10,266 nt of DNA, taken from an uncultured archaeon (lineage in GTDB: Archaea; Asgardarchaeota; Thorarchaeia; Thorarchaeales; Thorarchaeaceae). The notes below the pieces were generated by a model. That model did not search any database. It saw only the letters and a program-made list of their open reading frames with translations, and had not been told where the DNA came from. The position numbers and the translations under genes are program-made. Positions 1-10,266 of this stretch are shown here, piece by piece (within the stretch, counting starts at the first letter, position 1; every line of letters starts with the position of its first letter). The stretch lies in contig CAYYQL010000063.1 of the NCBI GenBank assembly GCA_964473825.1, positions 1 to 10,266 of the forward strand. The letters are read 5' to 3'.

Positions 1-19
1 CCACCACCATGGCATTCAT
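1..19 (-). CDS. Possible 5' end of a gene leaving the window (MNAMVV...)
   Basis: ATG at 19 (alternative ATG at 10), preceded on the minus strand by GTGA and a TTATAT box at about 32-38. Only 6 codons are visible. Confidence 0.3.
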
Positions 20-333
20 ATGTTTTCACGCATATAATGATTCACATCAGCGAGGGGCAAACGACGGATGACATGGGCAGTCGGGTTGTCATTGTTATCA
101 AGATGCTCTCTTACGGACGGTTCATTATCAGTTGTACGGTCTTGGACACCAGAGTGTCGAAGTACCAAGGAACGGTAATAGAGCAACTCTGTGAGGTCTA
201 TACTGTTTCAGGTCAGCCGCACCCTCTGATGATTGTTCTGAGCCACATAGGGACCTATCAGTTATTTCCAGCTGTTGTCTGATTGATATCGAGTTATATC
301 CAGGTTTCACGAAGCGTCCTGCAACCCGTAGTT

Positions 334-984
334 CTAGGTATCACGACGGTCCTTGCAGCCGGGCCGGGGTCTAAGGCCGAGATGGCGCATTAGCTTCCCA
401 CCGGGCATCCTTCTTTCTTCACTATCTTCATTATCAGATGAATCCACGGGCACGTCTCGGCGTCCAACCTGTTTGAAACCATATGCAGTGATGAGTAGCC
501 GGGATGGGCGATTCTTCTCGAAGACCTCACAGTAAATCTCTTCTACACCTGCTTCGAGAAAGTACTCGGAAGCTCTCTGAATCAATGCGGTAGCTATTCC
601 TCGACGTCTACGAGAGGGGAGTACGCCGATACCTGTGATTTCGCCGTATACAGACTCTTCATCCTTCTCCACAAAACAGGCAATGAAACCCGCGAGGTCC
701 CCGCCAAGTAAGGCAACAAATATGCCATCGGTATCAAGATTCTTAGCATCTTCCAGAGTGAGTGGACAGAAAGGGTCAGGTGAGGCGATGAAACAGCGAT
801 TGTAGAGCTCAACAAATCCTTCCATCTCATCTCGACGAAGGTTTCTGACCGTGATATATGTCGGAATGTCTTTGTCTTTCCACCAGTCGCTGGCCAGTTC
901 CAGTGCCTCTTGAGCATCCGCCTTCATGATCAAGTAAGAGTGCACAGAAGTATCCGTCTTAGACTCAACTCCATCTGCGGCCAT
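334..984 (-). CDS. GNAT-family N-acetyltransferase (RimI-like C-terminal domain)
   Basis: Acetyl-CoA motif A IGVLPSRRRRGIATALI and motif B EVFEKNRPSRLLITAYGF. Start moved from 999 to ATG 984 (MAADG) because GGAGG lies 8 nt upstream of it. Confidence 0.88.
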   Translation of the reverse strand: MAADGVESKTDTSVHSYLIMKADAQEALELASDWWKDKDIPTYITVRNLRRDEMEGFVELYNRCFIASPDPFCPLTLEDAKNLDTDGIFVALLGGDLAGFIACFVEKDEESVYGEITGIGVLPSRRRRGIATALIQRASEYFLEAGVEEIYCEVFEKNRPSRLLITAYGFKQVGRRDVPVDSSDNEDSEERRMPGGKLMRHLGLRPRPGCKDRRDT

Positions 985-1046
985 CAGCCAGTCCTCCATT
1001 AGTACTGTGTAATCATAGATAACAATCTGTTGATAATTTGTATCGT

Positions 1047-1853
1047 CTACTCCGATAAGAGTGAGTCTATGGCTGCCACAGTTGCCTGTATCGATCTCTG
1101 AACAGCCTCGATCAAGAGAGGGTTCTGTTCGCCCGTTTCTTTACTCTCGTCCTCTTGTTCACCCTTTTGCTCACCGTGAAGATTACCGTCGCAGGATAGA
1201 ATCGATGCGGCCTCAAGACCGCGGGTGCTTGCAAACACGTACACGAGCGAACTCTCCATCTCAACACACTTGACGCGCGCCTTTGTCCAGATGTCTAGCT
1301 GGTCTGCAACCCGGGCAGCATAGTAGACATCACTTGTCCAGCATATTCCTGTATGAACACGGTCAGGCGGCAGCAGCTTAGCAACCTCCCCATGAAGGGC
1401 TTCAAACCACCTGTACGAAGCCACCGCAGGATACTCAATGGGTGCATAGTTGAGACTGGTCCGTTCATCTCGAATGCATCCAGTTGGAATAATAACATCT
1501 CCTGCCACAACCTGAGGATCTATACCCCCACAAGAACCGATACGGATTATAACCTCGGCCCCTAGCTTAGCAAGTTCTTCTATGCAGATATGAGTTGAGG
1601 GGGTCCCAATGCCAGTGCCCGAGATTGTCACGGGAATCCCTTGGGGCGTATACGCCCGATATGTCACAAAGCCTCGATATCGAGCAATCTCTTCCGCATC
1701 GCTCATTGCAGAGGCGATTTTGGGAATCCTATCAGGATTCCCTGCAATCAATACTATTCGTTCTACGTCACCGTCTCCAACACGAAGATGCGGCTGAATT
1801 CGACGCTTCAAGTCAAACACCGGGTAGCAGATGCGACTTGTTTCCTTTTTCAC
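1047..1853 (-). CDS. Nucleoside phosphorylase, PNP_UDP_1 (NP-I) family, uridine-phosphorylase-like
   Basis: Motifs GNPDR, GTGIGTPS, IRIGSCG, RDERTSLNYAPIEYPAVA and VEMES. The GTG start overlaps the upstream gene's TGA (GTGA). Confidence 0.9.
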   Translation of the reverse strand: MKKETSRICYPVFDLKRRIQPHLRVGDGDVERIVLIAGNPDRIPKIASAMSDAEEIARYRGFVTYRAYTPQGIPVTISGTGIGTPSTHICIEELAKLGAEVIIRIGSCGGIDPQVVAGDVIIPTGCIRDERTSLNYAPIEYPAVASYRWFEALHGEVAKLLPPDRVHTGICWTSDVYYAARVADQLDIWTKARVKCVEMESSLVYVFASTRGLEAASILSCDGNLHGEQKGEQEDESKETGEQNPLLIEAVQRSIQATVAAIDSLLSE

Positions 1854-2071
1854 TGTTCGGTTTCTGACTGGCCGGGCGAAGACTGAGGGGATTCCATTCT
1901 CTTCATCACGCAGTCAACACAGACCCAGTGACCTGCAACCAAGAAAGTCCTTCCTAGATACACCAGTGATTTGCCGCATATAGAACAGGGGTTCAGCGAG
2001 TCGGGATAGTTTTCAGACAGGTATACCAGTAGAAGCGATATGAGTCTCCTGTGGCCAGACAGCGTTTGCAC
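1850..2071 (-). CDS. Small C4 zinc-finger protein of unknown function (start uncertain)
   Basis: CSICG...CVDC pair of CxxC motifs. The 4-nt stop/start overlap with the phosphorylase suggests translational coupling. Confidence 0.65.
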   Translation of the reverse strand: MQTLSGHRRLISLLLVYLSENYPDSLNPCSICGKSLVYLGRTFLVAGHWVCVDCVMKRMESPQSSPGQSETEQ

Positions 2072-2183
2072 AACATCAGCATCCTTTCCAATGCGTTCGC
2101 ATGATTCCTTATTAGCTCCGAGAACATAATTCTGATCTGCTCATCCCAAGAAGATTCCTATAATAGCATTCTGTGGACAGACA

Positions 2184-2190
2184 TTATTTA
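2184..2190 (+). promoter_or_regulatory. TATA-like box, bracketed by inverted repeat GGACAG (2175-2180) / CTGTCC (2205-2210)
   Basis: TTATTTA about 55 nt upstream of the SD-led ORF at 2244. Confidence 0.4.
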
Positions 2191-2243
2191 CTGGTGTGCA
2201 CGGCCTGTCCGCTCATCCGAGTCTGAATGATAGAGGTGCGAAA

Positions 2244-2489
2244 CTGGTAAGTGTAGGCTTTGACGATGATTGTTACCGACATGGTCAGAAGGACACCTTG
2301 GAGTTTTCGTGGCCCGAGGGCCCAAGCTCTAACCACCTCGAACCGAGCTGCAGTGATGTTACCTGTGCATTGCTCACGATATGTCCATTAGACCAGCGAC
2401 CCTCCATTCCTGACAAGCTTCTCATAGACGCAACCTGCCCGGGTGGATACAAATCCTCAAGGGGCACCCCAATTCTTGGTCTATACTGA
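2244..2489 (+). CDS. Small Cys-rich hypothetical protein (about 81 aa, MVSVGFDDDCYRHG...), probable CTG start
   Basis: SD GAGGTG at 2233-2238, 5 nt before an in-frame CTG. Five Cys. Fills the gap and ends 10 nt from the convergent GNAT stop. The ORF track instead starts it at GTG 2196. Confidence 0.55.
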   Translation: MVSVGFDDDCYRHGQKDTLEFSWPEGPSSNHLEPSCSDVTCALLTICPLDQRPSIPDKLLIDATCPGGYKSSRGTPILGLY

Positions 2490-2499
2490 TGACCATTCA

Positions 2500-3804
2500 C
2501 TAGCAATGATAGAATGGAACGTGGCTCTCCTTCTTTGGAAAGAGTGTTTCGACCAGCCCCCGTATTCTACCACTCACGATGAAGTCCGAATTCATCTCGC
2601 TTAGTTCCTTTACACTATTATGGCCAAGCAAGAGCCTGACGAAGTCCTGACGCATGCTTCTGAATTCAGTATGCTTGTCGTGCCCTTGGAAGCCGATATT
2701 CTCCACAGATGTGATTTGTCCCTCAACAACGCGGAGTACGTAGCAGTCACGATAGGTGTTTATGGCGAACTCTCTCGTGAGAAACTCATACATCGTGCCT
2801 TCCAGGCGTTTCTTAAGAATCGGAGCCGCCTTTTTCAGGAAATTGGTCACATCAGGAATCCTGACTTGGTAACGCCAGCCACGACTCATCTGCCCTCCTA
2901 AGTCTAGACCGACTTGGCTCATATTACAGACCTGAGTTCCTGGAAGGGCAATGTTACAGACATCATTATCCTTTGCCAAATCACGAACATGGACAAGTGC
3001 ACGTAAGACACCGGGATAGCTGCGTATACTGCTCTCTAGGATATCAACAAGGTGAATGCTCTCGGCGTCTTTCTCTCGGCGAAGTGTAACACGGAAATAG
3101 CCTACAATCCCGCCAGCATCCTCCAATACGTAGGTGCTGAAGGGCTGTGCATATTCTTTTTGATTCGTTTCTTGTTGCTCCCATAGAAGCTTTGACCGAT
3201 TTGAGCTGATAAGAAGGCGGTCACAGAACTGTTCATAGAGTACTATCATATGCGGGATGTCATCAGTGGTTGCGTGCCGAATCTTGAGGGACATAAGATT
3301 GGGAAAGTCGTCTACGGAGGTATCCGGAATCTGATCTGGTCTTATGTAGACACTACGTCCCAGAGGAATGATGAAATCGTAGTCGAATTGACGATAGAAG
3401 AAGGGGACCCCCATAATAGTGGAGATGTCGTAGTTGCCTTCTCTCAGAACTCTGTCGAAGTACTGATACAGAAGCGCCACGAGGCCCTTTCGCCTGTACT
3501 CTTCAGTGGTTCCGACAAAGCCCAGCTCCAGGTTCCTAAGTGGGATGCCTTCGTAGGACCAGACACTGGGAATTGAATTGAGAGAGGAAACAATCTTGCC
3601 GCTGTCACTCTCACGAATGTAGTAGTTCATCTCCCTGCCAAACCCTGGGAGACATTCAATCATTCGACGAAGGGATTCACCATCCTCATCTCCGTGAATG
3701 GCGACATTGAACTCGATTAGCTGCTCCTGTTCCTCGTCGGTTTCCACAACGCCGAACTCTAGACCGTCGGGGATATCTAACCCATCAATGTTTTTCACGG
3801 TCAT
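2500..3804 (-). CDS. Eis-like GNAT acetyltransferase (GNAT-GNAT-SCP2-like architecture)
   Basis: VGTTEEYRRKGLV motif A, GVPFFYRQFDY, a second GNAT-like domain (GIVGYFR) and an SCP2-like C-terminus (DFVRLLLG...LVETLFP). Start set at ATG 3804, after GGAGATGA. Confidence 0.85.
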   Translation of the reverse strand: MTVKNIDGLDIPDGLEFGVVETDEEQEQLIEFNVAIHGDEDGESLRRMIECLPGFGREMNYYIRESDSGKIVSSLNSIPSVWSYEGIPLRNLELGFVGTTEEYRRKGLVALLYQYFDRVLREGNYDISTIMGVPFFYRQFDYDFIIPLGRSVYIRPDQIPDTSVDDFPNLMSLKIRHATTDDIPHMIVLYEQFCDRLLISSNRSKLLWEQQETNQKEYAQPFSTYVLEDAGGIVGYFRVTLRREKDAESIHLVDILESSIRSYPGVLRALVHVRDLAKDNDVCNIALPGTQVCNMSQVGLDLGGQMSRGWRYQVRIPDVTNFLKKAAPILKKRLEGTMYEFLTREFAINTYRDCYVLRVVEGQITSVENIGFQGHDKHTEFRSMRQDFVRLLLGHNSVKELSEMNSDFIVSGRIRGLVETLFPKKESHVPFYHC

Positions 3805-3878
3805 GATAGACTCATCTCCATGAGTGTCCCGACCATCACATCTCTGCTTAAGAAGCATGTGAAGAAGACCGCATCGTA

Positions 3879-4550
3879 TCAGCTAGCCTTCAGGTAGTAA
3901 TCACATAGATTCGTGAGGGGGCAGACCTGGCACCGAGGGGAATTCCTGAGACACACTAATGCGACAAGGTCAATCATTCCCCAGTATAGCCGCTTGTCGT
4001 GGTCGGGATGCCCAATATGGCTAACCAGCGTCCAGATGGCTTCATCATCAGGAGAATCTGCCTCAAGACCGAAGAATCGTGAAACTAGATGAGCAATGTT
4101 ACTGTCCACCATGGGCACAGACTCACCGAAGGCGAAATTGAGAATTGCTGCAGCGCTATAACGTCCGAGTCCCGGAAGCGTGCACAAGATATCATAATCA
4201 TCTGGTACCTCTCCTCCATGTTCATCTTGGATTATCTTTGAGGTTTGAGATAGATGCGTTGCCCGGACTCTCTGGAGACCTAAGCCCTCAACCGCCCCCT
4301 GAATCTCATCCAGCTCGGCCTGTGCTAGTTCCTTGATACAGCTGAACTCGTCAAGGAAAGGCGTGTATTTCCGTTCTACGGCCGTGGCCGTGGTGCGCCG
4401 CAGAAGCATCTCGGCAATTAGAATACGATATGGTGTTGTATCTTCACGCCATGGGTATTCACGGCCATTATCAACAAACCAGGAAACGACAGACTCCCTG
4501 AATCTGCCAAGAGTCTTCTCATCGGGTATTTCCACAGAAGGCAATCTCAT
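3879..4550 (-). CDS. mig: HhH-GPD DNA glycosylase, Mig type (T/U:G mismatch), MutY-related, with 4Fe-4S cluster
   Basis: YPWR; AEMLLRRTTA (Mig-type LLRRT rather than MutY LQQT); HhH LPGLGRYSA with Tyr at the Nth lyase-Lys position; catalytic Asp in VDSN; C-X6-C-X2-C-X5-C. No MutT-like C-terminal domain. Confidence 0.8.
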   Translation of the reverse strand: MRLPSVEIPDEKTLGRFRESVVSWFVDNGREYPWREDTTPYRILIAEMLLRRTTATAVERKYTPFLDEFSCIKELAQAELDEIQGAVEGLGLQRVRATHLSQTSKIIQDEHGGEVPDDYDILCTLPGLGRYSAAAILNFAFGESVPMVDSNIAHLVSRFFGLEADSPDDEAIWTLVSHIGHPDHDKRLYWGMIDLVALVCLRNSPRCQVCPLTNLCDYYLKAS

Positions 4551-4566
4551 CAGTGTCCCTGTGATT

Positions 4567-5985
4567 TCAAGTCATATAACGGGAGAGGTCTAGCTGATAT
4601 GGGTCGATCTCCCAGTCGCCACGTCCGTAGGACCACTCTGTGGCGAAGTCGGTCGCTCCTCGCGATCCTTTCACTCTTACAGTCATGATTGGTTGAACCA
4701 GATCGATATCGGGGCGTTCTTCTAGATGCTTGAATGTATTATAGTATTGGACTTGATGTTTTCCAGGAACGGTCAACCACACGATTATTCCCTCAGCCGA
4801 CAGGAAATAGGTGGCTTGTGGTACAAGAGTCAGAATACGAAGGATGTAATCCCGGCCATGTTCATTGCATATTATCTCGAAACAGAAACTAGAGTCGAGT
4901 CCTAGTCCATCGAAGCTGATGTAGGGTAAGACGATTCCCTGTTTCTTAAGCCGCCGCACAACCGCGCCCACCTCCACCGCATTAAAATCGAGTCCTCTTG
5001 TCCGAAGATTTCTCGCTAATTCACTAGGTGGTGCGCGGTAGTCAAGTTTCAATTGGCTACCGACCACAAAATCGACGGGTGAGAATCCTTCAATTGGACC
5101 ACGACATCTGAGCATATAACGGTCAAGGCTCTCCAATGGAATCTCTCCACCCTTATGGAACCCCAAGTGTTCGGAGATAACCCACTCATTGTTGTTGAAG
5201 AGACTGAAATTGTACCTCTGGCCTGTCGCTTGCTGCACGTGGATAGTTGCGTAATCGAAGATGTTATGCGTGAGCTTGGAAACACTACGACTGAAAGCTG
5301 AAATCCGTTCTTCTCCTCCCGGAAACAGAAATGTCGCGTAGCCCAAATCGGTCATTGTCGTCTTCAGAATGGTTTTTGTGAAGGGAAAGTGAGCCAGACC
5401 CATCTCTATGTTCGGCCAGTCAGCGCCATCTTGTAACCTAAAGAATACTACGACTGAATTTATCCCAAAAGCGGTCGTATCTAAGAAACAAGAAAATCGG
5501 AGGTATAGCCGTTCTGTTAGACGCTTCAGGGATCGCGTTACAGTACGAGATGAAACGCCAAGATGGGAAGAAGCATCGGCTGTTGACGAGTCCGGATTCT
5601 TGGCAAAATATGCGAGGGTATTGAGGTCATTGGCTGCAATCGGGGTTTCGGGCATTAAGAATGCAAAGGTCAGCGCAGACCTCACGGAATCGGCATTGTT
5701 GAGGTTATACTTCTTGAGTGTTCTCAGGTTGTCGATGATTCTCTCTTTCACAACCTCGTTCAGAGGAATGGTAGTGGGATTGAAGGGATACTTTGTGTAT
5801 TCGGGGTTCTCCTTGAGCTCTGAAACCCCCTTGGAGGCAAGATCGAAAGATATAGTCCCGGAACACAGACCGAGATAGATGCGGATGGCATCAAGATAGA
5901 AGCTCACGGTTTCATCGTTTGTGGTGGGGACTATATCGTCGTAGGGTGTCACAATTTGTGACAATGCATCGCGTTTGGTATCCAC
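4567..5985 (-). CDS. Large Lrp/AsnC-like winged-HTH protein with duplicated HTH + RAM-like modules and an N-terminal extension
   Basis: HTH1 LNTLAYFAKNPDSSTADASSHLGVSSRTVTRSLKRL, then LDTTAFG. HTH2 DYRAPPSELARNL...VVRRLKKQGIV, then ISFDGLG. Start likely GTG 5985 after AAGGTG; the ORF track gives 5997. Confidence 0.75.
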   Translation of the reverse strand: MDTKRDALSQIVTPYDDIVPTTNDETVSFYLDAIRIYLGLCSGTISFDLASKGVSELKENPEYTKYPFNPTTIPLNEVVKERIIDNLRTLKKYNLNNADSVRSALTFAFLMPETPIAANDLNTLAYFAKNPDSSTADASSHLGVSSRTVTRSLKRLTERLYLRFSCFLDTTAFGINSVVVFFRLQDGADWPNIEMGLAHFPFTKTILKTTMTDLGYATFLFPGGEERISAFSRSVSKLTHNIFDYATIHVQQATGQRYNFSLFNNNEWVISEHLGFHKGGEIPLESLDRYMLRCRGPIEGFSPVDFVVGSQLKLDYRAPPSELARNLRTRGLDFNAVEVGAVVRRLKKQGIVLPYISFDGLGLDSSFCFEIICNEHGRDYILRILTLVPQATYFLSAEGIIVWLTVPGKHQVQYYNTFKHLEERPDIDLVQPIMTVRVKGSRGATDFATEWSYGRGDWEIDPYQLDLSRYMT

Positions 5986-6022
5986 GTGGTGTCCCACCTT
6001 GGTTAGGACGCTGCTATACTGA

Positions 6023-7075
6023 TCAAAAGAGGTACGGCAGAATGTCCTTCAATCCTTTTCTTATAATCCGTGCTTCCGTTATGAATGTAGATACTTGCGC
6101 GTCTGACTTAAGCATGTTGGATAGCGAAATTGATAGCCCAAACCAATCAGAGGCACTAGGTAGGCTGATATCCACTGCCATAAGTCGACTCCCCGAGAGA
6201 ATCCTAGCTCTTGGCAATAGATGCCCCTGAGTGTGCAGGAGTCGTGAAACGCTGCTGCCCCTAGTAAGGTCATTGACACAAGTAACGATACTTGGTCCGA
6301 GTCCTATGTTCTGAATCTCTATGTAGGGACGAGCCAGCCGTTCTCTATAATCAGAGAGCCTTCTTCGGATTGTCCTGAGGGAGGGGGGCGAAAGCCCAAG
6401 AGTGAGCATATAATCATAGACCTGAGCAGCACCGGAGTAGTAATCACTCTCAAGGCACGCTCCAGTTGCATGAATATCGGCTGAAACTCCTCTCGAAGGC
6501 CCCTGGTCGAGTGGAGCGTTAGCTGGAAGGATCTCTGAGAACTCCCGTGCTGCGTCGATTGATGCCTCAAACCTGAAATCAGTCGCGAAGTTCCAGCTAT
6601 TGCCATTGAAGAGCCCAAGGTTCAGGTGTTCGGTGATGGTCGAAACAGGTTCGCATTCGATATTCAGATTATAGGGGCGCTTCTCAAACCTGGCCAGTTT
6701 CTCCAAGAAATTGGAATGGTGCCGTCCAAGAGGCAAGAGTACTTCGAAATACACTCTCTCGTCCGTCTTGGTACTCATGAGCGCGTCTGCCTTGGCTATA
6801 ACAAACGGATTTGCATCAAGCCATCTGGAGAACTTCTCAACGGCAGCTGCATCTTCCTCACTCCATACCCAACCAATAAGTATCGAGAAGCCAAGGACGT
6901 AGTAGTCCAGAAGACAGCGAACACGGAGACTCCTTTCATCCACTAATCGATTCCATATCTGGCTTACCGCAGACCGGCTGACACCAAGCTGTTCTGCAAT
7001 ACCAACCTGTCTCTCTGTAGGGTTGATTGCCAAGCGCCTCAGCACTCGAAGCTCAGAAGGACCAAGAGGTTTCAA
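6023..7075 (-). CDS. Lrp/AsnC-like winged-HTH protein with duplicated modules; paralog of the downstream gene
   Basis: N-terminal HTH ELRVLRRLAINPTERQVGIAEQLGVSRSAVSQIWNRL, then LDYYVLG. Second HTH-like SLRTIRRRL...IQNIGLG. TTG start. Confidence 0.78.
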   Translation of the reverse strand: MKPLGPSELRVLRRLAINPTERQVGIAEQLGVSRSAVSQIWNRLVDERSLRVRCLLDYYVLGFSILIGWVWSEEDAAAVEKFSRWLDANPFVIAKADALMSTKTDERVYFEVLLPLGRHHSNFLEKLARFEKRPYNLNIECEPVSTITEHLNLGLFNGNSWNFATDFRFEASIDAAREFSEILPANAPLDQGPSRGVSADIHATGACLESDYYSGAAQVYDYMLTLGLSPPSLRTIRRRLSDYRERLARPYIEIQNIGLGPSIVTCVNDLTRGSSVSRLLHTQGHLLPRARILSGSRLMAVDISLPSASDWFGLSISLSNMLKSDAQVSTFITEARIIRKGLKDILPYLF

Positions 7076-7106
7076 GTCAAGTCATATCAGGATACTCGTG
7101 GCCACT

Positions 7107-7118
7107 TGTTAAGATTTT
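7107..7118 (-). promoter_or_regulatory. Putative BRE/TATA promoter for the regulator operon
   Basis: Minus strand reads AAAATCTTAACA about 35 nt upstream of the TTG at 7075. Confidence 0.4.
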
Positions 7119-7235
7119 GGGTCGAGAAATCGTCAGGATTTTCGGTCCTGCGAGCCAACTTCACGAGAGCGAGCTCCCCCATGCAGAAGAATGGAGACAG
7201 AAGGCTTGGAATATCGATTTTTCGTACCCCGCTTC

Positions 7236-7244
7236 TTTTATTTA
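7236..7244 (+). promoter_or_regulatory. Putative TATA box for the micropeptide transcript
   Basis: TTTTATTTA. Predicted TSS about 7265-7272, just before the first leader hairpin. Confidence 0.5.
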
Positions 7245-7276
7245 GGACCTAGCCCCCATATACTTGTCAGTTGTAA

Positions 7277-7389
7277 ATGGAGTCCGACGAAGAACGGTCT
7301 CTATGAAGTGTTGCGCAAATGAAAGCCACACAGCTTCAGTGTGGACACTTAGATACCTGACCATCTGGCGGAAAAAGGCCAGGAGGTGA
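7277..7389 (+). promoter_or_regulatory. Structured 5' leader: three consecutive stems, the last sequestering SD AGGAGGTGA
   Basis: H1 ATGGAG-T-CCG/CGG-T-CTCTAT (7277-7304). H2 AAGTGT/ACACTT (7306-7350) enclosing CCACAC/GTGTGG. H3 ACC-A-TCTGGC/GCCAGG-A-GGT (7360-7387). Confidence 0.5.
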
Positions 7390-7394
7390 ATACA

Positions 7395-7529
7395 ATCAGC
7401 GCCGCAAGTATGCGAGAAGTGTACGAGTCTTTGACAGAGAGTCGTATCGTTCTCGAGCTCTGTGCAAAGGGTGTCGGTGATCTATCGACCATCGTACAAC
7501 CTCCATGCGAAGATCCTTGTCCTTTCTAG
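7395..7529 (+). CDS. Micropeptide 1: (M)SAASMREVYESLTESRIVLELCAKGVGDLSTIVQPPCEDPCPF (44 aa from ATC 7395, or 39 aa from ATG 7410)
   Basis: Perfect SD AGGAGGTGA at 7381-7389 and an open frame to TAG 7527-7529. Its C-terminal motif is shared with micropeptide 2. Confidence 0.6.
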   Translation: MSAASMREVYESLTESRIVLELCAKGVGDLSTIVQPPCEDPCPF

Positions 7530-7594
7530 ACTTCAGCTTTTGCTACGAGGAGACTGAGGTCGGGAAAGGTCAGCTGACGGCGTTGACTGGCCGT
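7517..7594 (+). other. Structured RNA spacer overlapping the stop of micropeptide 1, with competing helices
   Basis: CCTTTCT-A-GACTTCAG (7521-7536) pairs with CTGAGGTC-G-GGAAAGG (7554-7569). Alternatives are GGTCAGC/GTTGACT (7568-7588) and ACGGC/GCCGT (7577-7594). G-U pairs favour the + strand. Confidence 0.55.
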
Positions 7595-7654
7595 AAGCCG
7601 GATGTATGATAACATCGACTTACAGCAACAATTCACAGGAGGATGAGAGAAAAA

Positions 7655-7693
7655 ATGAATCCGTCACAATGGGAAGAACCAGAACCATTCTAG
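7655..7693 (+). CDS. Micropeptide 2: MNPSQWEEPEPF (12 aa; 16 aa, MREKMNPSQWEEPEPF, if started at ATG 7643)
   Basis: SD-like AGGAGGATGA at 7637-7646, ATG 7655, TAG 7691-7693. Ends E-E-P-E-P-F, matching E-D-P-C-P-F of micropeptide 1. Confidence 0.45.
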   Translation: MNPSQWEEPEPF

Positions 7694-7747
7694 AACAAAT
7701 ACTTTGAGAGATGTTGAATGAACAAAGAAAATCGGAGGAAAGAGTGA

Positions 7748-7999
7748 TTGATCAGAAGTGAAAGCATCGACACGCTAGCATTCCTAGTCCAGCCTGAGAA
7801 TGGACGGGCAGTTGACCCCTTCAACGACCCTGAGATTGTCAGGTTAGTAGCAGCCAACCTTGAGATGGCAGTCCGGAACTTGATGATGGCTAATTCATCA
7901 CCGGAGTGTCTTGTGCTGACTGCAGATATCTGTAGCCACAAATTAGTTGCTGCTCCAAAGGCAGACGGAAGCATCAGTGTCACAATATATGATGAGTAG
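7748..7999 (+). CDS. Hypothetical protein, 83 aa (TTG start)
   Basis: SD GGAGG at 7734-7738. Protein-like alpha/beta pattern. No family recognised. Confidence 0.7.
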   Translation: MIRSESIDTLAFLVQPENGRAVDPFNDPEIVRLVAANLEMAVRNLMMANSSPECLVLTADICSHKLVAAPKADGSISVTIYDE

Positions 8000-8013
8000 C
8001 CAAACGTTAGACT

Positions 8014-8062
8014 TGTCACTGTGTATTGCCGTGTCCGAGTAATTGGGCCGGAAATATTGACA
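8014..8062 (+). other. Long GNRA-capped hairpin in the 3' UTR of the 83-aa gene
   Basis: TGTCA..GTATT.CCG.GTCCGA-[GTAA]-TTGGGC.CGG.AATAT.TGACA with several G-U pairs. Possible outer closure TTAGACT (8007-8013) / AGTCTAA (8078-8084). Confidence 0.5.
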
Positions 8063-8109
8063 GCAAGAATCGATGGGAGTCTAAATAGCTATGTCAGTAC
8101 TCAAGAACA

Positions 8110-8140
8110 GACTCTGCGTGGGCCTATCCACGCAGATGTC
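8110..8140. promoter_or_regulatory. Strong inverted repeat upstream of the MFS gene
   Basis: GAC-TCTGCGTGG-G-CCTA-T-CCACGCAGA-T-GTC: a 9-bp perfect stem plus extension. Confidence 0.55.
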
Positions 8141-8178
8141 AAGGTTGGCTCGGTATTTACGGGTCAGGAGAGTACTGT

Positions 8179-9597
8179 ATGCAGAGGTTACAAGAAGATA
8201 AGAAAGAGGGATCAGCTACGGAGGACCGCGAACCTATCACCAGCGTCCCTCCGCACAACGAAAACGGGGAGTATATTGAGGGCAAGAACATTATTGCGTC
8301 ACTGAGAAGAGTCTTCTCGTGGCAGAACTACGTTGTCTATTTGCTTACCTCATGGACTTTCAATGCTCTGATGACTCTGGGAAATTTCTTCAACCTGTAT
8401 CTGCGGAACCTTGGCTGGGAGTACATCTTGATTGGTGCGGTCGCGAGTATCACTGGTGTGGTGGCTGCACTTTCGAGACTTGGAGGCGGATACATTGGGG
8501 ACAATTATGATAGAAGGAAACTCTCCGTCGTGGCGATGGCCATGTACGCGCTATATTACCTGCTGATTGGCATAACTGACTCCTTCATCATTGTATTCGT
8601 TTCACTCAACATCTTTGCCCTGACGAACTTGGCCAAGGGGGGTTCCACGGCCTTCATTATGGACAGTATACCGAAGAAAGATAGTGGCTTTGCGCTCTCA
8701 CTCTTTAATGCAGGGAAGGCTTTGGGAGTCATCACACTCTTGGTATTCTCAGCTCTGATTCCAGTATTTGGATTCGTTGAGAGCTTTCGGATCTTGTATC
8801 TCTTCACCGGAATTTCCCTTCTGATATGCGCTATCATACGTGACCGTCTGCTACTGCCAGCTGAGGAGAATGGGACACGAGAGAGAGCATCTTCTCTCTT
8901 CAGGGACTTCATGCAAGAGAATGCCAAGGCCGTACGACAGCTCCTTTCCGTCATCCCGGGTGTGATCCTCATTGTAATCATCGATGCGCTAAGTGATGAT
9001 ATGTTTCACTTTGGAGCTCTTATCTATTCTAACGAGATTATTGGAGTTTCAATCAGTGGAATCACTATCATCGTGCTTGTCTCCTTACTCCTTAGCGCAC
9101 CGCTTGTCTTGAAGGTCGGTCGAATGTCTGACAGAATCGGAATCAAGAAAGCAGGAATCGCTGTGTATACTCTTATGCCTGTTTCTGTATTTCTTCTCGT
9201 CCTTGCTTCTTTCGTAACCTTCTGGGGGCCCATCGAGCTGTACGCCTTGGCGGAATCGCTGTGGCCGGGCTTGGGGACGATCTTCACAGTCCCCTTTGTT
9301 GCCATTGTAATGAAAAATGTCAATGATCTGCTCTGGTGGGTTCTACTTATCACAATGGTACAGAAGTCCCTTCCACGGACGGATACAGCCAAGATGCTTG
9401 CTTGTTTCTGGTTCACGGTTTATGCAGTAAGGGCGATTGGCCCTCTGGTGGCAGGATTCATCTTCCAGTATTCCAGTCCAGTATTTCTCTTCGTCATCAT
9501 ATTCTTCATGAATCTTCTCATCTTGGGATTGATTCATCGGGGAGCCTTGAACATCAACGGAGAAGAGAAACCTGAAACAGAAAGCAAGGAAACTTAA
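8179..9597 (+). CDS. Major facilitator superfamily transporter
   Basis: About 12 hydrophobic segments, MFS motif A variants GGYIGDNYDRR and GRMSDRIGIK, and SD AGGAG at 8166-8170. Confidence 0.92.
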   Translation: MQRLQEDKKEGSATEDREPITSVPPHNENGEYIEGKNIIASLRRVFSWQNYVVYLLTSWTFNALMTLGNFFNLYLRNLGWEYILIGAVASITGVVAALSRLGGGYIGDNYDRRKLSVVAMAMYALYYLLIGITDSFIIVFVSLNIFALTNLAKGGSTAFIMDSIPKKDSGFALSLFNAGKALGVITLLVFSALIPVFGFVESFRILYLFTGISLLICAIIRDRLLLPAEENGTRERASSLFRDFMQENAKAVRQLLSVIPGVILIVIIDALSDDMFHFGALIYSNEIIGVSISGITIIVLVSLLLSAPLVLKVGRMSDRIGIKKAGIAVYTLMPVSVFLLVLASFVTFWGPIELYALAESLWPGLGTIFTVPFVAIVMKNVNDLLWWVLLITMVQKSLPRTDTAKMLACFWFTVYAVRAIGPLVAGFIFQYSSPVFLFVIIFFMNLLILGLIHRGALNINGEEKPETESKET

Positions 9598-9659
9598 GGT
9601 CTGCCTGCTGCCTCAATATGTATCGAACAGAGATACCATTCCAGATGAGGAATCCCAAG

Positions 9660-10266
9660 ATGGATTTTCAAGAGCGCGTAGAAGAGGTCATGAAACGACT
9701 GAAGAAGGCCTACCCTAATGCTCCGCCCACATACCTAGAATACAGTAATGCATTCGAGATGACAATTGCCACGATTCTCTCAGCTCACACAACTGACAAG
9801 AGTGTGAACTCAGTCACTCCAGAGCTCTTCGATAAGTATCCAGACCCGAAGACCCTGAAGGGGGCAGACCCCGACGAAGTCAAGGGAATCATCAGACCAG
9901 CGGGCATGTACAACCGGAAGACCGAGTACATCATGAAAACGGCCAAGATGCTGGTTGAAGACTTCGGAGGAGAAGTTCCAACGACCATCAAGGATCTCTC
10001 TAAGATGCCTGGCATATCACGGAAGACAGCCAATGTGATTCTTCAGACTGTGTTTGATATCAACGAGGGCGTGGTTGTTGACACACATATTCAGAGAGTC
10101 ACTCAACGCTTGGAATTCTCGGAAGAAGAACGCCCGGAGAAGATTGAGAGGGATTTGATGGAGATCCTACCCAAGGACGAATGGGACGACTATGCACGCA
10201 TAATCGGTGCTCATGGAAGAGAGATCTGTACAGCCAGATCTCCAGACTGCCCTGCCTGTCCGGTGA
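9660..10266 (+). CDS. nth: Endonuclease III (DNA glycosylase/AP lyase), truncated by the window end
   Basis: Not in the ORF track because it has no stop; translated by hand: MDFQERVEEVMKRLKKAYP...ILSAHTTDKSVN...KMPGISRKTANV...VVDTHIQRV...HGREICTARSPDCPACPV. Catalytic Lys and Asp and the start of the 4Fe-4S motif are present. In-frame upstream ATGs at 9618 and 9645. Confidence 0.93.
   Translation, partial: MDFQERVEEVMKRLKKAYPNAPPTYLEYSNAFEMTIATILSAHTTDKSVNSVTPELFDKYPDPKTLKGADPDEVKGIIRPAGMYNRKTEYIMKTAKMLVEDFGGEVPTTIKDLSKMPGISRKTANVILQTVFDINEGVVVDTHIQRVTQRLEFSEEERPEKIERDLMEILPKDEWDDYARIIGAHGREICTARSPDCPACPV

Follow-up and report, generated by a model that had tools for sequence, protein, structure and literature searches.

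Conserved micro-ORFs beside a tandem Lrp/AsnC regulator in Thorarchaeota and their predicted role as its peptide ligands

Organization of the locus

The window analysed here is a stretch of 10,266 nt from an uncultured archaeon of the Thorarchaeaceae (GenBank assembly GCA_964473825.1, contig CAYYQL010000063.1, positions 1 to 10,266). It includes a cassette whose order is the same across the family, with the genes for two regulators, R476 and R350, on the minus strand, followed on the plus strand by two very short reading frames, ORF-A and ORF-B, the gene for a small protein, P83, and an MFS transporter gene. The peptide genes are divergent from R476, with R350 lying in between in Thorarchaeota.

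R476 (4567–5997, minus strand), the predicted peptide receptor, is a tandem Lrp/AsnC protein in which a unit made up of a wHTH and a RAM domain is present twice in the chain, together with an extra N-terminal domain of about 110 aa. It matches HTH_24, and both Lrp units match PH0061/PH0140. R350 (6023–7075, minus strand) is a paralogous tandem Lrp/AsnC protein that lacks the N-terminal domain (hhalign probability of homology to R476, 99.3) and is a possible partner or second receptor. Its AF2 model (pLDDT 86) has the NirDL/Lrp-like tandem fold, and among fold matches the enzyme NirDL ranks first. A sequence search of the PDB returned no peptide-bound homolog of R476, just single Lrp/MarR-type chains, and no TPR family was detected in the 36 receptor sequences scanned.

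P83 (7748–7999, plus strand) is an orphan alpha/beta protein of 83 aa that accompanies the peptide gene. It is single-copy in 35 of 36 family genomes and was not detected in 24 other genomes searched. Close matches come from Ca. Thorarchaeota MAGs, and the search returned eight convincing cluster representatives and one weak match, with no remote homolog and no match in Pfam, NCBIfam or the Atlas. The AF2 model (pLDDT 85) consists of one helix and a three-stranded beta-meander, for which the best fold match, to PAS/longin-like chains, is weak (Z 6.3). A 9-bp GC-rich hairpin downstream of P83 (8113–8136) is the putative end of the operon. The MFS transporter gene beyond it (8179–9597, plus strand; MFS_1) is present in 35 of 36 loci and is a conserved neighbour in Thorarchaeota only, none having been seen behind the peptide genes of other families. 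As the hairpin and a gap of variable length, up to several hundred nucleotides, separate it from P83 and it was not seen in other lineages, a link between the transporter and the peptides is doubtful.

The cassette lies between two genes for HhH-GPD (MutY/Nth-like) glycosylases (3879–4550 and 9618–10266), the second of which keeps its place downstream in most family genomes. In most relatives, genes for an AfpA flavoprotein and two Mer-like F420 LLM proteins converge on R476 (e.g. L058:2063-4627), and these are absent from this place in the genus to which the window belongs. We have taken these neighbours (the F420 LLM pair, AfpA and Nth, and also GNAT, glycosyltransferase and SerRS) to be ordinary synteny.

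ORF-A and ORF-B are conserved genes

ORF-A (7395–7529, plus strand) encodes a peptide of 44 aa with an amphipathic helix at the front and a tail of the form QPPCEDPxPF, which here reads VQPPCEDPCPF before the stop codon that ends at 7529. ORF-B (7655–7693, plus strand) encodes a leaderless 12-aa peptide, MNPSQWEEPEPF, with a species-variable front and a Pro-[WFY] end. The SD of ORF-A is GGAGGTG (7382–7388, plus strand) and that of ORF-B is AGGAGG (7637–7642, plus strand). A preliminary description of this DNA had drawn attention to two SD-led ORFs ending in E[DE]PxPF-stop, and the positions, SD sites and codons that it quoted were all correct. This ending is not a chance recurrence, as it occurs at just 2 of the 256,961 stop codons of the 3.27-Mb genome, namely those of ORF-A and ORF-B; the same two were the only ones among 4,135 SD-led short ORFs to end in PxP[FWY], and no long ORF with a matching [DE]PxP[FWY] tail was found in the genome scan.

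Homologous loci in related genomes keep both short ORFs, and both are real, conserved Thorarchaeota genes. ORF-A is present in 63 of 76 family genomes and is missing from four loci that have ORF-B. No paralogs were found in its own genome, and outside the family there were just two marginal partial matches among 224 genomes. For ORF-A, dN/dS was 0.046–0.13 in five genera (mostly 0.05–0.13), with a value of 0.6 in one three-genome set that includes very few changes and saturation in another set. In genus g6, amino acid identity is 95 % for ORF-A compared to 81 % for SerRS. Synonymous divergence is low (pS 0.44 versus approximately 0.75), indels preserve the frame, changes concentrate at third codon positions, and a Cys is found in 62 of 63 tails. 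A DNA repeat was rejected on the strength of this third-position variation. An RNA was also rejected; there is no match to an Rfam family and no conserved structure in ORF-A or in the gap between ORF-A and ORF-B (mean z −0.65 and −0.92), and variation again falls at third positions. The suggestion that the peptide rather than the DNA is conserved, and that the C-terminal motif is functional, is supported by conservation at the codon level. The motif as first worded is too narrow, as the exact ending is seen in 43 of 63 ORF-A and in 3 of 72 ORF-B copies. The ends of ORF-A and ORF-B across all copies give instead a family motif of [DEP]-x-P-[FWY]-stop, i.e. acidic/Pro-x-Pro-aromatic-stop.

Two possible starts for ORF-A, 7395 and 7410, had been put forward, and only the first stands. 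The SD was found in 59 of the 61 orthologs examined, and behind it the start codon is ATT in 34, ATC in 14, ATA in 10 and ATG in 1, that is, ATH in 58 of 59, at a spacing of 6–8 nt. Neither the GTG at 7386, within the SD, nor the ATG at 7410 is conserved across orthologs and both were rejected. In eight AUH orthologs, the GTG within the SD is out of frame or interrupted by a stop codon and there is no early Met. As the SD, spacing and ATH are conserved and these eight orthologs offer no alternative, the start is placed at the ATC at 7395. AUH starts are not enriched genome-wide (8 % compared to approximately 10 % in controls), and AUH as a general start codon of this genome was rejected. ORF-A is probably translated weakly because of its AUH start. 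The M-R-E start that the two peptides had been said to share appears to be incidental, as the upstream MRE of ORF-B is found in only 3 of 67 copies.

Two further features of the region were recorded. In many genomes, the approximately 150 nt on the 5′ side of ORF-A (7250–7390) are more stably folded than shuffled sequences (mean z −1.7, down to −7), with no obvious structure common to the genomes. Many MAG contigs terminate in or directly beside ORF-A (G018, G207, G198, G029, G201, G034 and G228; L102–L114), and two pairs of these contig ends overlap by 125–131 nt. The breaks may arise from near-identical ORF-A DNA in co-occurring strains with differing flanks.

ORF-B varies between species and is constrained within lineages

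The 72 copies of ORF-B represent 65 distinct peptides of 11–16 aa, in which Pro makes up 30 % of residues. An SD-like site lies ahead of 67 of 67 copies, and the ends of these 67 scored copies are PW (48), PF (16) and PY (3), features that are partly circular since both an SD and a P[FWY] end were criteria of the search for copies. The position, the length and the upstream [DEP]-x pattern (71 of 72) are not circular. Some tails read EEDDEPF or HEEDEPY. The gap between ORF-A and ORF-B spans 83 to 260 nt across loci. In g6, ORF-B varies (DARPGDERFEPW, APWNTSEIPEPW, DDPGHDSQNIEPW and others) while ORF-A is near constant. For the variable front, dN/dS is 0.45–0.77, a range that points to relaxed or diversifying evolution. 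As the values are below 1, relaxed constraint would explain them as well as diversifying selection.

ORF-B is duplicated in several genomes, and the two copies match each other and not those of neighbouring species. In the g2 pair, nine codons differ synonymously, including a TCA/AGT serine switch, and all 12 residues after the start codon are identical. The g10 and g5 pairs are near-identical at the DNA level and could have been homogenized by gene conversion. A product that is duplicated in dose and constrained over its whole length within a lineage is more readily understood as a trans-acting ligand than as a stalling leader, and from its pattern of variation ORF-B seems to behave like an identity signal. 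In one MAG, there are two versions of the cassette that are 74 % identical (G004 contigs C99 and C100, loci L100 and L101) with different ORF-B peptides, NNPFASPVPW and NNPFASPSPY, representing either a duplication or a mixed bin.

Peptide genes face R476 homologs in other Asgard families

Homolog searches gave Thorarchaeota-like sequences as the top hits. Full-length homologs of R476 were found in at least six other families, including Atabeyarchaeia and Asgardarchaeia, and the peptides encoded opposite them include MYPQDPFPV, MAPRIPPKPEPW, MDGPNGGIVPW, MYNPIDDPFPW, MRDDADPIDPTPF and MDPYSDDPFPF. A divergent SD-led ORF with the pattern P..P[FWY] accompanies 14 of 42 receptors from outside the Thorarchaeaceae, compared to 26 of 1267 control genes (2 %) and 0 of 68 other genes at the same loci; the motif was defined from the Thorarchaeota set, 12 of the 14 are short and convincing and two are long and probably spurious, and because the genomes are related the comparison does not amount to a formal test. 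Additional peptides lie behind weaker SDs. In a quick receptor tree, similar receptors have similar peptides, and paralogous receptors within one genome face different peptides. The peptide gene tracks R476, not R350 or the MFS gene. Many of the peptides of other Asgard families are followed by an ORF of 64–87 aa with a weak match to the P83 profile (E 5e-4, probability 32).

ORF-A has no Sec signal (max KD15 0.9–2.2), none of the 72 ORF-B copies has a signal peptide, and the peptides of most of the distant relatives are also leaderless. In three Asgard lineages, the tail lies behind a signal-peptide-like stretch (max KD15 2.7–3.1), and the forms, with cleavage sites placed by eye, are …VVLA/DPQDPWPTG, …PTIA/DEGCPPNPEPISG and …PAAA/LPTAGSGSPA.

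For several R476 paralogs, no peptide gene lies in the vicinity. In Thorarchaeota, such paralogs adjoin secreted-looking proteins (L173:2004-3878, L177:1829-3709, L182:3092-4546 and L175:3113-3865), of which three have Pro-rich tails (PEIPRPPPGPYD, QINPLPLS and YDPEPPDL) that could be the sources of ligands. In family f12 (L187, L189, L192 and L193), ATGTGAAA and not GGAGG is found ahead of the peptide genes, which suggests a shifted or weak SD. In one locus from Atabeyarchaeia (L181:5045-8104), tandem R476 homologs share a single divergent peptide gene (DPGGPGPYGN), a layout that recalls the two regulators seen here.

A predicted complex of ORF-A with R476

R476, R350, P83 and ORF-A, the only peptide included, were co-folded as four chains. 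The complex score was 0.85, 0.85 and 0.83, compared to 0.00 for all three controls, including one in which R476 was replaced. For calibration, 58 of 80 solved pairs reached the score mark compared to 2 of 110 mismatched ones, figures that apply roughly to a job of four chains. Confident contacts link ORF-A residues 30–44 with R476 residues 70–114, 165–222, 317–318 and 396–448 and involve no other pair. At least 39 % of the contacts recur between runs. The peptide pLDDT, at 39 or above, is low, and the fold of the peptide in the model is uncertain. ORF-A made no confident contacts with R350 or P83 in this job, which is no evidence against binding.

The predicted interface includes S107, R167, T213, W407 and G444-S445-R446 of R476, all invariant or near-invariant, and as a whole it is not significantly more conserved than the remainder of the protein (p 0.16 and 0.29). 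Co-variation of ORF-B with R476, R350, the MFS transporter or P83 did not rise above that with control genes, and the mean-z comparison within this test is uninformative by construction. The model supports binding of the ORF-A tail to R476 as a prediction, short of showing it. From the tail that it shares with ORF-A, we infer that ORF-B would bind R476 as well.

A 15-bp box and a candidate regulon

The sequence TG[GT]CC[AG]n[AT]TGTT[AT]AG at 7099–7113 (plus strand) is a candidate operator or upstream activating site. A close version is present in 51 of 52 cassettes, and the box was found in 38 of 41 family genomes (approximately 157 sites compared to approximately 15 for the reversed control). 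TATA-like hexamers across the cassettes peak 120–134 nt past the box, and on the basis of its position the sequence at 7236–7243 (plus strand) is the candidate TATA box of the peptide operon. A TATA box lies at +120–140 from the box both here and at the remaining sites.

The box is also found beside three R476 paralogs, and at other sites, among them C4:85858, C4:123766 and C17:21902 in this genome and the loci L231–L260, it precedes recurring genes. These encode an orphan family of 126–140 aa (13 sites), a glutaredoxin-like protein of 112 aa (4) and an orphan of 70 aa (3), the recurring orphan genes starting approximately 175–180 nt past the box. The 126–140-aa family has the signature RRP.IP..WD...RPHVA, no Pfam match and Atlas leads (<0.9) to beta-trefoil inhibitors. 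The glutaredoxin-like protein carries a CxxC motif, and in one locus a secreted protein of 385 aa lies behind the box. The protein that binds the box would be R476, probably with R350. At this locus, the box could also serve as the promoter of R350.

A proposed peptide signalling circuit

Selection acts on both ORFs at the level of the peptide, the genes of the cassette keep a fixed order, and homologous receptors in other families face genes for Pro-aromatic peptides. Our favoured reading, in which we have modest confidence, is that ORF-A and ORF-B are peptide ligands of the divergently encoded R476 and that the cassette forms a circuit for peptide signalling, which most likely acts between cells. 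Among the roles suggested in the preliminary description, this retains the ligand or docking motif and disfavours a RiPP-like core and a ribosome-arrest sequence; the connection to the 476-aa regulator had not been made there. The acidic Pro-x-Pro-aromatic tail is predicted to insert into R476 where its two RAM domains and its N-terminal domain enclose a cavity. R476, probably together with R350, would bind the box approximately 125 nt upstream of the TATA box and may control the peptide operon and two to eight other promoters. Because R476 would then control its own peptide operon, a feedback loop would result, making the circuit one of the autoinduction type. With a strong SD, an AUG start, a species-specific front and sometimes two copies, ORF-B would be the abundant signal that carries identity. 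ORF-A, which is near-invariant with an AUH start and a helical front, would act on the same pocket at low dose, as a modulator, primer or competitor. As ORF-B lacks a signal peptide, export would need a non-Sec route and might proceed as for the leaderless communication peptides of bacteria; the neighbouring MFS protein is only a candidate exporter.

The main rival keeps the same ligand-receptor pair and confines it to the cell, the peptides being cis-encoded co-effectors that are never exported. In an archaeon that ferments peptides, such a circuit would be a bistable switch or would gauge translation against peptidase activity. The absence of signal peptides from ORF-A, from all copies of ORF-B and from most of the distant relatives is as this reading would have it, and the complex model is silent on export. 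However, signal-peptide-like forms occur in three Asgard families, bacteria can export leaderless peptides (PMC10518010), and a species-specific sequence with matching copies within a genome is more easily explained by kin recognition. We consider a purely intracellular pair rather unlikely.

It is less likely still, and in our view improbable, that the ORFs are cis-acting ribosome-arrest leaders, with ORF-A, like the uORF of AZIN1, stalling when aIF5A or proline is limiting and so tuning ORF-B, P83 and the MFS transporter. The AUH start, conserved here and uncommon genome-wide, the Pro-Pro and Pro-x-Pro close to the stop codon, the lower synonymous divergence of ORF-A, the downstream MFS gene and the AZIN1 precedent (PMC9082881) would all suit such a role. 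Against it, neither a conserved RNA structure nor an Rfam match was found, each of the genes downstream has an SD of its own, and the variable gap between ORF-A and ORF-B implies no fixed coupling. Moreover, relatives have the tail behind signal-peptide-like fronts, the peptides track R476 and not the MFS gene, and the model docks the ORF-A tail in R476. ORF-A may nevertheless have a dual role in ligand binding and arrest.

A RiPP, with ORF-A comprising a leader and a core that includes the conserved Cys, NirDL-like enzymes as the modifying activity, P83 as the recognition element and the MFS protein as exporter, seems very improbable. The best fold match of R350, the near-universal Cys in ORF-A tails and the adjoining transporter are in keeping with it, but no known maturase was recognized in the conserved cassette, and the leader and conserved Cys are missing from ORF-B and most of the distant peptides. 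The AhbA/B-NirDL catalytic motif, HxYxR, is absent from the consensus of both R476 and R350, which both retain wHTH domains, and the P83 model does not have the RRE order. Decoy tails directed at unrelated replication or trafficking proteins, an idea based on a likeness of tails such as EEDDEPF and HEEDEPY to SSB C-termini (DDIPF-like) or the adaptor-binding motifs DPF/DPW, are hardly credible given that the genome scan found no long ORF with a matching tail and that the peptides are tightly linked to one receptor family across Asgard.

Comparison with known systems

Archaeal cell-cell communication is poorly known. In Haloferax, the best-developed model, the evidence is for a small molecule that is as yet unidentified (PMC12240190). 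Neither an archaeal peptide-receptor pair nor a description of cassettes of this kind was found in the open-access literature searched. Extending the signalling circuit favoured above, we tentatively propose, with less confidence than for the circuit itself, that Asgard archaea communicate by species-specific peptides in a system of their own, based on a repurposed fused Lrp receptor. The form found in Thorarchaeota would combine a variable leaderless pheromone with a constant, AUH-throttled competitor and a small regulon, with the box approximately 125 nt upstream of TATA. If true, this would put names to a signal, its receptor, a candidate operator and a regulon in the closest archaeal relatives of eukaryotes, and would widen the role of Lrp proteins from sensing amino acids to receiving peptides. 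The cassette also supplies a clean archaeal example of a conserved AUH start.

As in the AZIN1 uORF, which is AUU-initiated, ends in PPW and requires scanning and ribosome queuing (PMC9082881), ORF-A has a non-AUG start, a length of approximately 45–50 codons and a Pro-rich end. However, initiation of ORF-A is SD-led and its tail recurs on separate and sometimes export-tagged peptides. A thiolactone AIP of the AgrD type does not fit, as there is no AgrB in the cassette, ORF-A stops six residues past the Cys and ORF-B has no conserved Cys.

R476 and R350 share the wHTH and RAM domains of Lrp/AsnC proteins such as PH0061, PH0140 and LrpA, and the fused tandem layout is that of NirDL. The known effectors of Lrp/AsnC proteins are free amino acids or small molecules, and we know of no peptide effector described for the Lrp family. 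What sets R476 apart from these proteins is the additional N-terminal domain and the predicted binding of a peptide tail of 15 residues.

In the RRNPPA pairs (Rap/Phr, PlcR/PapR, Rgg/SHP, PrgX/PrgQ and AimR/AimP), as here, the peptide gene adjoins that of the receptor and a genome can have several pairs, and their Sec-type pro-peptides resemble the forms in three Asgard relatives. PrgX takes two peptides, cCF10 and iCF10, which recalls the two peptides proposed to meet at one receptor here. However, the receptors scanned have no TPR domain and the fold is non-homologous. A close parallel in gene layout is with the LCPs (SIP) of Firmicutes, hydrophobic peptides of 8–9 aa for which export and uptake have been shown and which act on a receptor of the RRNPPA family (RopB clan) (PMC10518010). 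Both systems have an ultrasmall ORF with no secretion signal that is divergent from a cytoplasmic transcription-factor receptor, here a predicted one, and in both the peptide code differs between species. In contrast to LCPs, the cassette belongs to an archaeon, its Pro-rich peptides are acidic, a tandem Lrp/AsnC protein is the predicted receptor, and export and uptake are proposed here. It also differs in gene content, with two peptide genes (one of which has an AUH start), a further regulator and the small orphan protein P83. As the receptor has an Lrp fold and is not a TPR protein, the cassette falls outside the RRNPPA/LCP systems despite a similar logic. To the Asgard pairs, this window adds the Thorarchaeota form with its two peptides, of which one has a conserved AUH start and the other is leaderless and varies between species, as well as the candidate regulon. 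The predicted function follows the logic of RRNPP and LCP signalling with unrelated parts, and it is on this ground that we regard the cassette as novel.
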